From the UHGV virus genome UHGV-0211740: a stretch of 64,000 nt of DNA, one strand, 5' to 3'. Source of the DNA: a virus. The notes beneath the pieces are model-generated. The model was given only the letters and a program-made list of their open reading frames with translations, ran no database searches and had not been told where the DNA came from. The translations under genes were made by a program, and so were the position numbers. Positions 37,704 through 60,900 of the stretch are shown piece by piece (positions within the stretch are counted from its first letter, which is position 1; each line of letters begins with the position of its first letter).

Positions 37704-38051
37704 TCAGTAAATGTTCTGTTTAATCTCTATTCCAAACTTTTTGAACGAATCTGCAGCAAGCATAAATTTACGAGCTGCCGATGGGTTAGAAGTATGCACG
37801 AAAATCTTCACGTTGTCAACCACAGGTGGCTTGCCAAATACAAATAGCTCTTCCAGTCTCAATAAAACAGCATATCCGTCTTGATCAGAGTCTTCACCCA
37901 AATCGTGGTCAAAGAACCACTCTGTCACTCTTCGATACATTTTAGCAGAATTATTAAGAAACTCCATAGCCTCTTGTGAGGTTTTAAACCAAATTGCATC
38001 TGCCTGTCCGTAGTCAGCTGGGTTACGCAAATCATCTATCCAAACTTTCAT
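37704..38051 (-). CDS. hypothetical protein
   Basis: 115-aa ORF immediately upstream of the Sir2 gene. Confidence 0.4.
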   Translation of the reverse strand: MKVWIDDLRNPADYGQADAIWFKTSQEAMEFLNNSAKMYRRVTEWFFDHDLGEDSDQDGYAVLLRLEELFVFGKPPVVDNVKIFVHTSNPSAARKFMLAADSFKKFGIEIKQNIY

Positions 38052-38059
38052 ACATACCT

Positions 38060-38668
38060 CTAAAAATTTTCTATCGGTGTTTTTGAAGATAAAGCTAAAA
38101 CTATCTTATTCTCAATTCTTCGTAATCCTAATAGCAACCTACTATCATCTACAGTTTTAATCAAGTCTCTAAGAAGTTGCAGTTTACATTCTAAGTATCT
38201 CATGTGTGCCTCAATCTGCGTGGGGAAGGTTCCAAGATAAACCTGCGTGTCCTTAACCCCATCTTTGCAATAGGCAGCAAAAGATGGGCCTTTTCTTCTT
38301 ACTCCCATCAAACACTCCCCTCTTTGCGGCATCCTTGCTACAAAGAAGTTGTTTATTTCCCGGGGAACAAAAATACACGCTTCTGGGCAGTATATAAGAT
38401 TATTCTCGAAGAGAATATCTTTATCTAAAAATTTATCCCGCCAATCTTGTTTTTCCATCCAACGCTTGAAGTTGCTGAAGATTTTCCATTCTTCACAAAC
38501 TTCTACCATAGCATAAGCTTCAAATTTCTTGTTTTTAAGGTAGCACCTCCCTAGCATATTTGACCACGTCATATAAAAAGGACACATTATTCTCTTTCCA
38601 GTATCCTTGTCCAAAACCCTGACAGGATAGTCTGCATCATTAACACCAACACCATGTACAAGTTTCAT
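38060..38668 (-). CDS. putative homing-endonuclease-like protein with AP2-type DNA-binding segment
   Basis: YLGTFPTQIEAHMRY resembles the AP2 domain found in phage HNH homing endonucleases; weak. Confidence 0.35.
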   Translation of the reverse strand: MKLVHGVGVNDADYPVRVLDKDTGKRIMCPFYMTWSNMLGRCYLKNKKFEAYAMVEVCEEWKIFSNFKRWMEKQDWRDKFLDKDILFENNLIYCPEACIFVPREINNFFVARMPQRGECLMGVRRKGPSFAAYCKDGVKDTQVYLGTFPTQIEAHMRYLECKLQLLRDLIKTVDDSRLLLGLRRIENKIVLALSSKTPIENF

Positions 38669-55749: not shown

Positions 55750-57126
55750 ATGCCATATTTAGATAAAGTGGTAGATGTTACAGTTAACCTCGGAACCCAG
55801 CCTATTGACACTGTAGGTTTCGAAACTCCCCTGTTCATCGCTATCCACAATAACTTTACTGAGCGAGCTCGCGTATATGCTGAGCTGGACCAGATGGTGG
55901 AAGATGGTTTCGCACAAGGCTCTGCAGCATATGAGTTTGCAGCAAAAGCTTTTGGTGGTGTATTCCCTCCACAATATGTTATGATCGGCAGACAAGCCAA
56001 AGAAAAAACCACTGTAGATTTTAAAGGTATTGCTGCCGCAGCCGATACCGATGTCGTAATGACTATTGCAAAAGGTGACTACAATACTGCCTTGATAGTC
56101 CCTGTTTCTGGTGGAACAGCTGCAACTCAGATTGCAGAATCAATGAAGACCAAAATTGAAGCAGATGATAGCTTGAACGATATCACTGTAGTGGCTTCTG
56201 AAGGTGTTCTCACCATCACTGGTGACTGCACTGTTGGTTATCATACTGGTAACTATACCATTAAGAATGTCCCTAATGCTGAAAAACCTTCTACAGTAAT
56301 TGACAAGATCAATGCTGAGCGAGACAATTGGTACTTCCTGTGCCATGAAGACCACACTGACATTGAAGCGTGTGCTAAGTGGGCTCAGGCTAACTACAAG
56401 TTGCATGTCTACTCTACTTCAGAAGATGTAACTGGTAAAGACAGCAACATCGCCGCTAAACTGAAAGCTGCAAAATATGACAGTGTTGGTATGTACGACC
56501 CTCGCGCCGACAAAGACTTCCCAGAGGGCGGTATTATCGGTGCTATGGCATCCAACGACCCATCTTACGGCGACAGCTTACACTTAAAACAGATGCCTGG
56601 TGTGCTTGCACCATCACTGACATTGACCCAGCGCATGGCGATTTGGGAGAACAACATTAACTTCTACAGAACAATCAACGGTGTTGGTGCTTTCTGGGAA
56701 GGTAAATGTGCCTCTGGTCAGTATGCAGATGCTATCCGCTTCGCTCACTGGATTAAGTTTAGATCTGAAGAGTCCATGTTCGGATATATGCACCGCCGCT
56801 CTAATATGGGCCTGAGCATGAAGATGTCTGATGATGATCTGCCAGTTATCAAGTCTGTTCTGATGAACAACCCGATCAATACGGGCATTAAGAACGGTGC
56901 GATCCTGACAGGTTTTGACGAAGACAATAATGTATTCTACGACCCGATCATTACAGTTCCAAAACGTGCAGAAATCCCGACCAACCAGTTGGCTGCTCGT
57001 GTTCTGGAAGGTGTGAAAGTAGAACTGGTGTATAACAACGCTCTGCACTTCGTTCGTATCCGGATCAACGTTCTTCTGGACAAAGTTGGTTCTAAATCCA
57101 CCAATGCTGTTGCAATGACTGAATAA
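55750..57126 (+). CDS. major tail protein (tail sheath likely; sipho-type tube not excluded)
   Basis: 458 aa, followed by a 157-aa tube-like protein, a frameshifted chaperone pair and the tape measure gene. Confidence 0.5.
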   Translation: MPYLDKVVDVTVNLGTQPIDTVGFETPLFIAIHNNFTERARVYAELDQMVEDGFAQGSAAYEFAAKAFGGVFPPQYVMIGRQAKEKTTVDFKGIAAAADTDVVMTIAKGDYNTALIVPVSGGTAATQIAESMKTKIEADDSLNDITVVASEGVLTITGDCTVGYHTGNYTIKNVPNAEKPSTVIDKINAERDNWYFLCHEDHTDIEACAKWAQANYKLHVYSTSEDVTGKDSNIAAKLKAAKYDSVGMYDPRADKDFPEGGIIGAMASNDPSYGDSLHLKQMPGVLAPSLTLTQRMAIWENNINFYRTINGVGAFWEGKCASGQYADAIRFAHWIKFRSEESMFGYMHRRSNMGLSMKMSDDDLPVIKSVLMNNPINTGIKNGAILTGFDEDNNVFYDPIITVPKRAEIPTNQLAARVLEGVKVELVYNNALHFVRIRINVLLDKVGSKSTNAVAMTE

Positions 57127-57136
57127 GGAATACTAG

Positions 57137-57610
57137 ATGGAAACTCAAATTTTAACTCCTTATGCGTATGACCCTAAAAAGGTCAAACTGTATCTGATGC
57201 AGCAGCGTGTCACTGGCTTCGCTGCTGACACCAAGATCGTTGTTTCAAGAAATGAAGACAACATCTACCCTCACGTCGGTGTGGATGGCGAAATGTCTGC
57301 GGCTCTGTCTCGTAACCAATCCGGTGTTATGACTGTATCTTTGCAGAACACTTCTGTATGGAACGCCTACCTTTCTGACTGGCAGAAACAGGCATCAATC
57401 ACTGGTCTGGTATTCTTCCCGGTTCTGTTGGAAGGTAGCCAGGGTCCTGGTATTGCCACAATCGGTTGGATCCAGAAACAGCCCGACCTGACTTATGGAA
57501 CCGAAGTAGGTCAGCTGGACTGGGATATCGGTATCCTGGATGCATGGCTCAACCGTGACAACATCACTGGTGCTCTCACTGGCCTCGCAGGTCTTGCAGG
57601 TATTATCTAA
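57137..57610 (+). CDS. putative tail tube protein
   Basis: 157-aa ORF between the major tail gene and the chaperone genes. Confidence 0.45.
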   Translation: METQILTPYAYDPKKVKLYLMQQRVTGFAADTKIVVSRNEDNIYPHVGVDGEMSAALSRNQSGVMTVSLQNTSVWNAYLSDWQKQASITGLVFFPVLLEGSQGPGIATIGWIQKQPDLTYGTEVGQLDWDIGILDAWLNRDNITGALTGLAGLAGII

Positions 57611-57627
57611 GAGCACACTTCAGCATA

Positions 57628-57658
57628 AGCCTCACCTTCAGGTGGGGCTTTTTGCTTT
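57628..57658 (+). terminator. rho-independent terminator
   Basis: AGCCTCACC-TTCA-GGTGGGGCT hairpin then TTTTTGCTTTT. Confidence 0.5.
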
Positions 57659-57700: not shown

Positions 57701-57729
57701 TTGACAATGCACCATAATCATGGTAAAAT
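57701..57729 (+). promoter_or_regulatory. sigma70 consensus-like promoter
   Basis: TTGACA, 17-bp spacer, TAAAAT upstream of the tail chaperone gene. Confidence 0.45.
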
Positions 57730-57772: not shown

Positions 57773-58246
57773 ATGGCTATAAACTTTAGACCTACAACAG
57801 AGATTGACTTAGCAGGGCACAACTTCGTGATCACCCACTGGGGGCCGATGAAGGCAATGAAAAACATGCCTAAGATTGGCAAGATTGTGGCTGTCCCGTT
57901 GGGTGCTATCGGTGGATCTATTATCTCAGGCGGTCAGAATATGGCAGAGGTCCTTCCTACTGCTCTGGCCTACCTGTTCCAGGAACTTGATGATAACTCT
58001 ATTGAAGAGTTATTTAAAATCTTGTTCGAAGATATTACTGTAGACGGTGTGGATAGGCTTAATCCCGATGTCGTGTTTGCAGGGCATCTGCTGGAAATGA
58101 TTAAACTGGCAGGTAAGGTTCTGGAGGTTAACTACGGCTGTTTTTTCACACAAGACGGTTTAGGAAGCCTTCTGGAGATGTTACAGCAGATGGGTATGAT
58201 TCAGCAGGTGAACAATCTGGATCAGACTCCGGAAGAGCAGGAATAA
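57773..58246 (+). CDS. tail assembly chaperone (upstream frame)
   Basis: 157-aa acidic protein immediately upstream of the tape measure gene; contains slippery TTTTTTC near its 3-prime end. Confidence 0.5.
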   Translation: MAINFRPTTEIDLAGHNFVITHWGPMKAMKNMPKIGKIVAVPLGAIGGSIISGGQNMAEVLPTALAYLFQELDDNSIEELFKILFEDITVDGVDRLNPDVVFAGHLLEMIKLAGKVLEVNYGCFFTQDGLGSLLEMLQQMGMIQQVNNLDQTPEEQE

Positions 58247-58506
58247 GCAAAGTTGTTGTGAGAGCCAGTGAGTGGGCAGCTAAGAATAGCTCACTTAACT
58301 GGTTCGACTTTCTTTGGTGTAGGGTGCTCAAGAACTTTAAAGGGGAAAATTTTGAATCGCTTAATCTTGCAGATATGGCGTATTTCCTCAAGCTCTGTGA
58401 GTATCTTGATATCGAAGAATTCCTAGATACCGTCCAAAACAGGGAAATGGAGCGGGAGCAGAAGGCTGCCGCAGCTGCTGCGAAAGCTAAGCGCAGGAGA
58501 GGATAA
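58141..58506 (+). CDS. tail assembly chaperone -1 frameshift extension
   Basis: The -1 frame is open from the slippery heptamer at 58141 through the annotated 58258..58506 ORF. Confidence 0.45.
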   Translation, partial: FFHTRRFRKPSGDVTADGYDSAGEQSGSDSGRAGISKVVVRASEWAAKNSSLNWFDFLWCRVLKNFKGENFESLNLADMAYFLKLCEYLDIEEFLDTVQNREMEREQKAAAAAAKAKRRRG

Positions 58507-58511
58507 TCTAA

Positions 58512-58547
58512 GGGCCGGATTCCTTTTCTGGGATCTGGCCCTTTTTA
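58512..58547 (+). terminator. putative terminator or attenuator hairpin
   Basis: GGGCCGGAT..ATCTGGCCC hairpin followed by TTTTTATT. Confidence 0.4.
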
Positions 58548-58560
58548 TTATGAGGAAAAC

Positions 58561-60900
58561 ATGGCTACAAATAAGATAGTTGCCACAACAGTCAACAAGA
58601 TTGGCTTTGAGATAGAGAACTCCTCCTACAAAAAAGCTGTAGAGAAAATTCGCAGTATCGGGAAGGAGTTCAGGAAACTGGGCGAGGATTTTAACTCAGC
58701 CAACCCCATGAGCAGATGGCAGGCAGTGGCTGTTAAAACTCAGCAGACAATGCAACGTGTTGCCAGACAGCAATCCCAAGCAAATGCTAAACTACACAGG
58801 GAGAGCGTTGCTCAGGCCAAGAAAGAGGCTGCAGTAAAGGCTGCAATAGAGCGCAGGGAGAATGCAAGACGTAAGCAAGCTGTAGGCAATCTTACCGCCA
58901 AAAACCCAGAGATGGCTAGGATGCGTAAGTTCTACCAGCAGCAAGCTAAAGAGGCCAAAAAAGCTGCCAAATCTGCACCAGTATCCTATGGTGGTTATAA
59001 GGCACCTAAGGCAAGAGTTCTTGCTAACGCCAAGTCTTTCAGATATATTCCCGGCAACCCTAACATGGGTGGGGTGGCTTCAGATCCTAATCTTGTGAAA
59101 GCCCAGACTGCTGCCATGAACCGTTATCACAGACAGCTAAGAAGGGACAGCAAGGCTGGGATGGATAATAGGCTTATGGCAGATCGTGAGGCAAGGAGAA
59201 CCCACCTCTACAACTCTGCGATAAGACTTTCTGCTAAATATGGTGCCGGATTCCGTGGCAGATTGTCTGGGTATTCGGAGTTAGAGTCCCGATTTGCTCG
59301 CGGGGAAATGAGTAAGTCAACCTTTAACGCCCACCTGTCTGCGTTGCAGTCTGGATTCAAAAGTGCCACCAGCCAAACTCTGACCCTCGGTGATGCTATG
59401 AGGGATTTGCGTAGATCTGTGATCAACGCTACAGCTGCGTATACAGCTTTTTCTGGATTTGCTGCAGTTAACAGATCCGGTCATATGATGGAGGGGGCAA
59501 GTGCTGCTCTTACTGCTGTTACTGGAGATCCAAACAAAGCCAACAGTGAAGTTGCGTTTGTCCAGCAGGAGGCTATGCGTCTTGGTTTTGACCTCAAGTC
59601 TGGTCTTCAGGGTTATTCTCAGATGGCGGTAAACGCCAAAAATCAGATGACAAACCAAGAGGTGCATGAGCTATTCTCTGCATACTCCCAATATGCTGCT
59701 GCTTACGGTGCCGATGAGGTAAAATACCAGCGCGGTATTATGGCAATCCAGCAAATGCTCGGTAAAGGGCAAGTAATGTCCGAAGAACTGAAGCAACAAC
59801 TTGCTGAAGCATTACCTGGTGCATACGAACCTTTTATCAAAGCTACCCAAGAGGCTTTTGGTCTTGCTGAGCTCTCCATGGATCAGTTCATGGACATGAT
59901 GAAAAAAGGTGAAGTTAAAACAGCCAAGATAATGAAGTATGTGGCTAAGTACATGAATGAGGCATCTGCAGCTGGTTATGAAAGAATGCAGAAGTCTAAC
60001 GTACTGGCAGAAAACAGACTGAAAACCTTCATCGAACTGTCCCGTCAGAAACTGTTCACACGTTGGGCAGATGAACTGACAGAGTTCTACTACACCCTGA
60101 TCCGCACAGGGGAAACTTTCCAGTTCCTATGGGACGCTTCTGGTGACTTTGTCAGCGGATTTGTGAGAGGTTTGAACTGGGTTGTTGGTGAACTAAACAA
60201 CACTATAGTTAAGATCCGTTTGTTTTTCCTTGAATGGGGAATTAAATGGGGGCTCATAACCGCCAAGACGAAGGAATATTCTGAAGAGATACATGACACC
60301 TTTAGCATGGCTAAATGGGCAGGGTATGCTGCTGCAATCATGCTGGTAGTGAACGCCCTTACAAAAGGGTTTGTTATGGCATCCATGCTTGTAAAAACAT
60401 TTAAGTTCCTCAGCAACCTGAGAGGTGCAGCTGGAGCTGCAGGTGCTGGTGCAGTAACCGCAGACGGCTCTGGAGGAGGAGCAGCCGGAAAAGGTGGTGG
60501 TGGCCTCAAGACACCTGGTGGCAAAGTTGGTCTGCTCGGTAAGCTGGGCATTATCGGTACAATACTAAGCGCCGGGGAATTATTTAATGACCGTTTCAAC
60601 CCGCTGAGTGAAAGAAATCAACAGCTGGATACCATCGGCGATATGATTCGTAAAGACATCATATCTGGAGGTAACGGGTTTGTTGATCCTCTAAGCACCT
60701 TGCCGGGAGGTACTCTTCCGTTACCAGGTGGCCCTGGTTTTGCTTCTCAGTTAAGAACTATGGAAATGCTACCTTTAGAGATCAGTGATGGTAAAATCAC
60801 GATTTCAATAGATGAGGGCGAGTTTAGCAAAATATTTGATGCAAAACTTGAGTGGGAGAACAGTAAAGATATCAACTTTATGTCCACAGATCTTTGGTAA
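58561..60900 (+). CDS. tail tape measure protein
   Basis: 779 aa, helical with Gly/Ala-rich segment (AAGAAGAGAVTADGSGGGAAGKGGGG), downstream of the chaperone pair. Confidence 0.75.
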   Translation: MATNKIVATTVNKIGFEIENSSYKKAVEKIRSIGKEFRKLGEDFNSANPMSRWQAVAVKTQQTMQRVARQQSQANAKLHRESVAQAKKEAAVKAAIERRENARRKQAVGNLTAKNPEMARMRKFYQQQAKEAKKAAKSAPVSYGGYKAPKARVLANAKSFRYIPGNPNMGGVASDPNLVKAQTAAMNRYHRQLRRDSKAGMDNRLMADREARRTHLYNSAIRLSAKYGAGFRGRLSGYSELESRFARGEMSKSTFNAHLSALQSGFKSATSQTLTLGDAMRDLRRSVINATAAYTAFSGFAAVNRSGHMMEGASAALTAVTGDPNKANSEVAFVQQEAMRLGFDLKSGLQGYSQMAVNAKNQMTNQEVHELFSAYSQYAAAYGADEVKYQRGIMAIQQMLGKGQVMSEELKQQLAEALPGAYEPFIKATQEAFGLAELSMDQFMDMMKKGEVKTAKIMKYVAKYMNEASAAGYERMQKSNVLAENRLKTFIELSRQKLFTRWADELTEFYYTLIRTGETFQFLWDASGDFVSGFVRGLNWVVGELNNTIVKIRLFFLEWGIKWGLITAKTKEYSEEIHDTFSMAKWAGYAAAIMLVVNALTKGFVMASMLVKTFKFLSNLRGAAGAAGAGAVTADGSGGGAAGKGGGGLKTPGGKVGLLGKLGIIGTILSAGELFNDRFNPLSERNQQLDTIGDMIRKDIISGGNGFVDPLSTLPGGTLPLPGGPGFASQLRTMEMLPLEISDGKITISIDEGEFSKIFDAKLEWENSKDINFMSTDLW

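Follow-up and report, generated by a model that had tools for sequence, protein, structure and literature searches.

Does the tail chaperone gene of an rV5-like phage give rise to one protein or to two? The question is raised by a T-rich heptamer, TTTTTTC, near the 3′ end of this gene in the stretch of viral DNA analysed here (64,000 nt of UHGV virus genome UHGV-0211740; the whole stretch is hereafter called the window). A preliminary description of the window had read the heptamer as a programmed −1 frameshift site at which slippage would produce a C-terminally extended chaperone. Tailed phages are well known for frameshifting in their chaperone genes (Xu et al. 2004, as cited in PMC5009743). 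When the locus was compared among related phages, the proposed slippage received comparative support from all relatives checked, and on this evidence it is very likely that the chaperone is made in a long and a short form through −1 ribosomal slippage at TTTTTTC.

Slippery heptamer and reading frames of the chaperone gene

Read directly from the window sequence, TTTTTTC is located at positions 58141-58147 of the plus strand. In the zero frame set by the ATG at 57773, the codons across the heptamer are TGT TTT TTC, encoding Cys-Phe-Phe in the context ..NYGCFFTQ... The difference between 58141 and 57773 leaves a remainder of 2 when divided by 3, that is, the register X_XXY_YYZ is satisfied as T_TTT_TTC, and the coordinates, register and residues (..GCFFTQ..) first attributed to the site are all correct. 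The −1 frame is closed by a TAA at 58129-58131, opens at 58132, nine bases 5′ of the heptamer, and meets its next stop, a TAA, only at 58504-58506, so that the earlier reading of a −1 frame open through 58506 holds as well.

By itself, the heptamer occurs at chance frequency: the window contains 17 copies of TTTTTTC, against 20.4 +/- 4.7 expected from shuffles. The case rests on comparison among lineages. The position of the heptamer is more unusual. We let the window's 55 longest ORFs without mutual overlap stand for its genes and counted 45 in-frame X_XXY_YYZ heptamers in them, and only the one at 58141-58147 opens a long −1 ORF (119 codons) from inside a gene. In the −1 frame of this genome, with stops at a density of 9.4% per codon, a randomly chosen codon is followed by 37 or more open codons with a probability of 0.024. 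One further candidate, AAATTTT at codon 201 (of 202) in the minus-strand ORF 38060-38668, also leads into a 119-codon −1 frame, but was rejected as an ordinary gene junction; the gene that follows it (37704-38051) has its own ATG, with GAGG as a Shine-Dalgarno (SD) sequence in front.

A chaperone gene between tube and tape measure

The locus belongs to an rV5-like (Vequintavirus) E. coli myovirus, a contractile-tailed virus of 136 kb, and by megablast a 901-base segment around the site shares 96-99% identity with over 100 Vequintavirus genomes. Along the plus strand, the order of the genes is sheath, tube, chaperone, −1 ORF and tape measure, the chaperone pair being flanked by the tube and tape measure genes (Table 1). 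The chaperone ORF matches the Pfam family PF21822 with an E-value of 3e-23 and 83.1 bits (cut-off 22), its residues 15-129 aligning to profile positions 2-125 of 127, and phrog_3840, labelled 'tail assembly chaperone', with an E-value of 1e-68. The Phage_TAC_15 domain was also present in all of the 73 database homologues of the chaperone. The assignment to a tail module made in the preliminary description is borne out by these matches, which give both the identity of the chaperone and the gene order around it. Since the Pfam match ends at residue 129, almost at the end of the profile, a slip after codon 125 would keep the whole chaperone domain in the fusion.

Table 1. Features of the chaperone locus and its surroundings (window coordinates)
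Feature	Position	Strand	Evidence or remark
Tail sheath gene	55750-57126	+	phrog_205, E 3e-119
Tail tube gene, 5′ neighbour of chaperone	57137-57610	+	Pfam KPP10_Orf10, E 4e-9; phrog_280, E 1e-41
Terminator-like hairpin after tube gene	57627-57650		Hairpin scan
Sigma-70 promoter-like site, TTGACA-17-TAAAAT, TG before −10	57701-57729	+	Consensus scan 11/12; pattern match only
Chaperone ORF (TAC-N), short product, 157 aa, 17.3 kDa	57773-58246	+	Pfam PF21822 Phage_TAC_15; phrog_3840
SD-like GGAGG, candidate upstream stimulator	58123-58127	+	13 nt 5′ of heptamer
Zero/−1 frame overlap (dual coding), 115 nt	58132-58246	+	Between TAA 58129-58131 and chaperone stop 58244-58246
Slippery heptamer T_TTT_TTC	58141-58147	+	In frame; homologous codon in 18/20 lineages
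−1 ORF (extension), 119 codons and stop	58147-58506	+	Translation; domain conserved in 20 lineages; phrog_10409
−1 ORF as usually annotated, GTG start, 82 aa, 'hypothetical protein'	58258-58506	+	Public records
Terminator-like hairpin and T-run, between −1 ORF stop and tape measure gene	58510-58543	+	14-bp stem, 8 G-C pairs; 'terminator' in Murica record
Tape measure protein gene, 3′ neighbour	58561-60900	+	Pfam TMP_3, E 2e-18; phrog_5255, E 0

Together, the hairpin at 57627-57650, the promoter-like site at 57701-57729 and the hairpin at 58510-58543 bracket the chaperone and its extension, which look, judging from these motifs, like a separate transcription unit. Given the strength of the terminator-like hairpin at 58510-58543, the tape measure gene would then need read-through or a promoter of its own.

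Conservation of the proposed slip site among relatives

The comparison set was made up of 20 distinct lineages, the window included, with chaperone identities down to 28%. For it, 16 annotated GenBank phages (99% to 28% identity in the chaperone) were fetched, which belong to the genera Vequintavirus, Seunavirus, Avunavirus, Certrevirus, Phapecoctavirus, Justusliebigvirus, Barbavirus and Plateaulakevirus or are unclassified Aeromonas, Pseudaeromonas, Klebsiella and Citrobacter phages; the higher groups covered are the Vequintavirinae, the Stephanstirmvirinae, Barbavirus, Plateaulakevirus and unclassified phages. All 20 lineages carry an in-frame slippery heptamer at the homologous position or at most three codons away from it, although these lineages are related, and this and the following counts are not counts of independent events. 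The heptamer is TTTTTTC in 18 of the 20, CCCTTTT in KLEP7 and GGGAAAG in Barba16S, the latter being the lambda heptamer and displaced by three codons. In the Stephanstirmvirinae, TTTTTTC overlaps a second heptamer, CCCTTTT. From just 5′ of the heptamer, the −1 frame is open in every lineage and remains so for 74-98 codons after the stop codon of the chaperone. In the 16 GenBank relatives the +1 frame ends within 1-19 codons, and in at most 22 codons when four metagenomic lineages are included. These four (73%, 48%, 42% and 41% identity) were picked afterwards as a follow-up test and show the same layout: TTTTTTC, at codon 123-126, is the sole in-frame slippery heptamer of the gene, and the −1 frame runs 83-89 codons past the chaperone stop. 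The putative slip site and the two-frame layout are, as judged from this comparison, conserved among diverged relatives even where the type of heptamer has been replaced.

The nucleotides of the heptamer are more constrained than the residues that they encode. Among the 18 non-identical lineages with TTTTTTC, the entropy at the third codon position is 0 at the three heptamer codons versus 0.5-2.0 bits for the ten codons on each side. At the first heptamer codon the residue varies (Cys, Pro or Ser; 1.3 bits), while the codon is always NNT. In E. coli, H_HH.U_UU.Y and V_VV.A_AA.R are among the most efficient −1 motifs, and TTTTTTC, CCCTTTT and GGGAAAG all fall in these efficient classes (PMC4066793). 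That is, the type of heptamer has been swapped, the synonymous sites are frozen and the residue is free, a pattern indicating that selection acts on slipperiness itself.

The −1 extension

The extension consists of a linker rich in Gly, Ser, Asp and Pro, variable in length among lineages, followed by a conserved domain of about 80 residues with the motif ..A..KNSSLxWFDxLW.R..FKGE..SL...DMxYLLKLxEYLDIEEF... The −1 product opens with a conserved (R/E)RFR segment, which is dual-coded with the end of the chaperone. The last 82 residues of the extension match phrog_10409, of unknown function, with an E-value of 8.5e-51; a Pfam scan of the 119-aa extension at E <= 0.01 returned no family. A single-sequence structure model of the fused product reached a pLDDT of 37.8 and was unusable.

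No in-frame fusion of chaperone and extension was found when the extension was searched against 1.84 billion representatives. Likewise, no protein spanning both halves was found with the 244-aa fused product as query against 5.8 billion clusters, which gave only proteins of 149-159 aa with 50-62% coverage. The extension search also returned five long matches to DUF285/BspA leucine-rich-repeat proteins (P0080, P0082, P0086, P0088 and P0090; 737-1311 aa, E-values 7e-6 to 9e-4, in multiple stretches). With their marginal, repeat-inflated scores these were judged irrelevant, the similarity being probably a chance likeness to the NSSLxWFD..L motif.

In one uncultured lineage (P0081, 102 aa), the start called for the −1 ORF is an ATG that shares bases with the slip site (MFFQERFRSD..) and that arises from the Gly codon GGA in front of TGT TTT TTC. 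This ATG may be fortuitous, or it may give that lineage another way of making the extension.

Independent initiation, polymerase slippage or artefact

Frameshifting would not be needed if the downstream ORF were an independent gene translated from GTG 58258 into an 82-aa trans-acting protein, in which case the heptamer would be incidental. Most GenBank records annotate the ORF in this way, and a GTG or TTG is located 2-3 codons 5′ of the domain in the window, in the 73%-identity clade (L020/L021) and in A7_1. In the window, GTG 58258 sits two codons before the conserved domain, which makes independent initiation conceivable in this phage as far as the sequence alone can tell; the residues I-S-K-V-V just upstream are conserved in Seunavirus and Avunavirus, although they lie over the chaperone stop and just past it. 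However, no SD sequence is found at a functional distance, within 5-12 nt, of this GTG, and the start is not conserved in relatives. For 17 of the 20 lineages there is no canonical start before the domain, the first ATG, GTG or TTG of the −1 frame being downstream of the domain's invariant opening Ala. In 11 lineages it comes at least 10 codons past this Ala, beyond an invariant Leu and Trp. Klebsiella phage P8734 has 37 codons of the domain ahead of its first such start. With no start codon conserved for the downstream ORF, most lineages would reach it only from the chaperone frame. Furthermore, its annotation is inconsistent, with lengths of 43-88 aa in annotations, and of up to 102 aa among gene-caller products, from differing starts, and with the ORF omitted in inoa, muut and KLEP7, and an independent gene would explain neither the stop-free −1 overlap of every lineage, given the stop density in that frame, nor the invariant synonymous positions of the heptamer. 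We consider such a gene very unlikely; the earlier interpretation of the ORF as a fusion extension is favoured by the 17 lineages, with GTG 58258 as a qualification for the window itself.

The fusion would also be obtained by standard translation if RNA polymerase slipped on the T6 stretch and produced mRNAs minus one U or plus two. The site does hold six consecutive T, but efficient polymerase slippage usually takes longer runs. Certain genes of bacteria and phages do have homopolymer runs on which the polymerase slips (reviewed in PMC5009743), and a mechanism that differs from ribosomal frameshifting has been proposed for the chaperone pair of T4-like phages, to go by the title of reference 76 in PMC12846349. 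Against this, the X_XXY_YYZ register is conserved, and a polymerase needs no register. Moreover, GGGAAAG in Barba16S and CCCTTTT in KLEP7 fit tandem tRNA re-pairing and offer only a 3- or 5-base run; these relatives keep the codon register rather than the homopolymer, which leads us to regard polymerase slippage as very unlikely. Finally, the two frames might be an artefact or the remains of a decayed gene, a single ancestral ORF having been broken in two through an indel or a sequencing error, and a one-base indel in a T-run is indeed a common sequencing and assembly error. Yet the same layout is present, base by base, in 20 of 20 divergent lineages, which come from independent projects and sequencing technologies, and by alignment identity in 122 of 122 megablast-matching phage records (the layout being checked in those inspected). 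Lineages with both parts in one frame number zero. Because all independent genomes share the layout and none is single-frame, a sequencing artefact is excluded, and the chance of any reading of this kind being right is negligible. Ribosomal slippage at the heptamer is the reading that we develop below.

RNA elements around the heptamer

A search for a downstream stimulatory structure, suggested in the preliminary description as a check, came out negative for both folds computed. The fold of positions 58148-58250 (-25.2 kcal/mol, z = -1.6), with a stem that begins 19 nt past the heptamer, is unremarkable, and the consensus fold of nine Vequintavirinae (-1.5 kcal/mol) shows essentially no covariation and no conserved hairpin or pseudoknot. 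Upstream, the duplex of the GGAGG with the anti-SD, at -10 kcal/mol, is in the top 2% of 24-nt windows in tail genes, and a spacing of 13 nt between SD and heptamer lies within the range that is stimulatory for −1 shifts. The GGAGG may raise the shift rate in this phage. As a feature of the family, an upstream SD-like stimulator was rejected: an element of comparable strength (about -10 kcal/mol) is confined to 6 of the 20 lineages, and its presence is explained by the Leu-Glu-Val codons that encode it.

With no conserved RNA stimulator detected, the shift is probably infrequent, with a rate that depends for the most part on the heptamer. For U_UU.U_UU.C, a motif used by IS elements, a shift of more than 0.1% has been reported without a stimulator (PMC4066793).

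Proposed mechanism and products

We infer the slip, how efficient it is and what the two products do as follows. The majority of ribosomes would finish 57773-58246 and release the 157-aa chaperone. A minority would slip when the P site (UUU, 58142-58144) and the A site (UUC, 58145-58147) each hold a tRNA-Phe; both tRNAs would re-pair one base upstream, on UUU and UUU. Decoding would restart at CAC (58147-58149) and end, in the −1 frame, with the stop codon at 58504-58506. The predicted long form has 244 aa (27.1 kDa), that is, chaperone residues 1-125 followed by the 119-residue extension, so that a flexible linker and a conserved C-terminal domain of some 80 residues would take the place of the short form's last 32 residues. 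The junction tryptic peptide predicted for the long form is VLEVNYGCFFHTR, and the zero-frame C-terminal peptide predicted for the short form is VLEVNYGCFFTQDGLGSLLEMLQQMGMIQQVNNLDQTPEEQE.

By analogy with gpG and gpGT of lambda, both forms may coat the tape measure protein, while recruitment of the tube protein would fall to the extension in the rare long form; both forms would be expected to be absent from the virion. A wider reading, which we put forward tentatively and hold to be doubtful, is that the shift of the whole family is free of stimulators and driven by the heptamer, with a rate tuned in each lineage by a change of heptamer class or by gain and loss of GGAGG, and that the extension is an unrecognised family of tube-recruiting domains. 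The PHROGs to which the extension belongs (phrog_10409, 8811 and 16039) are all labelled 'unknown function'. If this reading were true, such a domain family would be common to the Vequintavirinae, the Stephanstirmvirinae, Barbavirus and Plateaulakevirus.

Relation to known frameshift systems

In lambda, gpG and gpGT are a −1 frameshift pair (Levin et al. 1993 and Xu, Hendrix and Duda 2004, as summarised in PMC5009743), with a ratio of short to long form of about 30:1; the G part coats the tape measure and the −1 domain recruits the tube (PMC5009743). The comparison with lambda G/GT made in the preliminary description stands for the mechanism and the gene order and fails for the sequence family. 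As in lambda, the pair is placed between the major tail or tube gene and the tape measure gene, the two products share their N-terminal part and the −1 frame adds a C-terminal domain, and one relative, Barba16S, uses the heptamer G_GGA_AAG of lambda. In contrast, there is no detectable sequence relationship: the chaperone here is a Phage_TAC_15 protein, the extension lies outside Pfam and the heptamer is T_TTT_TTC. A Pfam scan at E <= 0.01 gave no match of either half to the families of lambda gpG/gpT or P2 gpE. Lambda is also a siphovirus, whereas the present virus has a contractile tail and 136 kb.

The heptamer of P2, T_TTT_TTG, is T-rich like the one described here. The present extension differs from that of P2 in being much longer (119 aa), with its own conserved domain, and in belonging with a chaperone that has no P2 gpE-type Pfam match. 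The pairs of contractile tails, namely gpE/gpE+E' of P2 and those of the Mu type, are said to have been described by Xu et al. in 2004, reportedly with the −1 extension between tube and tape measure.

For the −1 shift of dnaX, E. coli relies on an upstream SD-like element, the heptamer A_AAA_AAG and a downstream hairpin. The GGAGG of the window, 13 nt 5′ of the heptamer, recalls this arrangement, but the phages have no conserved downstream hairpin, the SD-like element is missing in most relatives, and the outcome is an extended protein instead of the truncated one of dnaX.

A paper of December 2025 argued along the same comparative lines for the chaperone locus in the Vandenendeviridae and Andersonviridae, with a GTTTTT motif, and relates these families to the Vequintavirinae; the locus of the Vequintavirinae and Stephanstirmvirinae is outside its analysis (PMC12846349). 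The likeness lies in the poly-T motif at the 3′ end of the chaperone gene (TAC-N/TAC-NC) and in a −1 frame that is open through a 'hypothetical protein' or intergenic region, and there too the argument is purely comparative; the families are likened here by layout, not by homology of the chaperone sequences. Similarly, the genome announcement of Moogle notes a tape measure chaperone with frameshift (PMC4319497). Like the rV5-like phages, Pakpunavirus, with phage Adele, and Mooglevirus are large lytic myoviruses, with a virion architecture said to be common with the Vequintavirinae (PMC12846349, PMC4319497).

Annotation of the locus in public records

The paper on the genomics and proteomics of rV5 mentions neither a frameshift nor a chaperone, and we found no literature report of a chaperone frameshift for the rV5-like group. 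A 2026 Klebsiella paper that mentions 'peptides that suggest frameshifts' was considered as mass spectrometry evidence and set aside, as it concerns T4-like phages. A joined CDS of both ORFs was present in none of the 19 GenBank records inspected. The probable frameshift of the rV5-like phages is a so far unannotated case of a well-known phage strategy, and it challenges no current view; it extends chaperone frameshifting to another large group of contractile-tailed phages. More than 100 deposited rV5-like genomes and several hundred genomes of related subfamilies list the extension separately, with arbitrary length, or omit it, and should carry a joined chaperone CDS. The rV5-like phages serve in the typing of E. 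coli O157 and in therapy cocktails, and a correct inventory of their structural genes is therefore of some use.

Some further peculiarities were noticed in the records. About 18 unannotated 'Campylobacter phage' records (MG065635-MG065676; host Campylobacter jejuni) are 96% identical at this locus to rV5-like E. coli phages, and their host or organism label looks doubtful. The chaperone gene is named 'nucleotidyltransferase' in Klebsiella phage vB_Kpl_K54lambda1.1.1 and 'tail tube protein' in Escherichia phage JohannJBalmer; both names are probably annotation errors. In addition, several relatives carry other genes within the tail module. In the gut-metagenome lineage with 73% identity, a large gene with a DUF723 domain lies directly 5′ of the chaperone (L020 1-1397, L021 1-1444), a reverse-strand gene for a DNA-binding protein separates the extension from the tape measure gene in Barba16S (L013 2120-2758), and in Aeromonas phage 4L372XY an annotated endonuclease comes after the extension (L014 2319-3384). 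These three genes are possibly mobile insertions.
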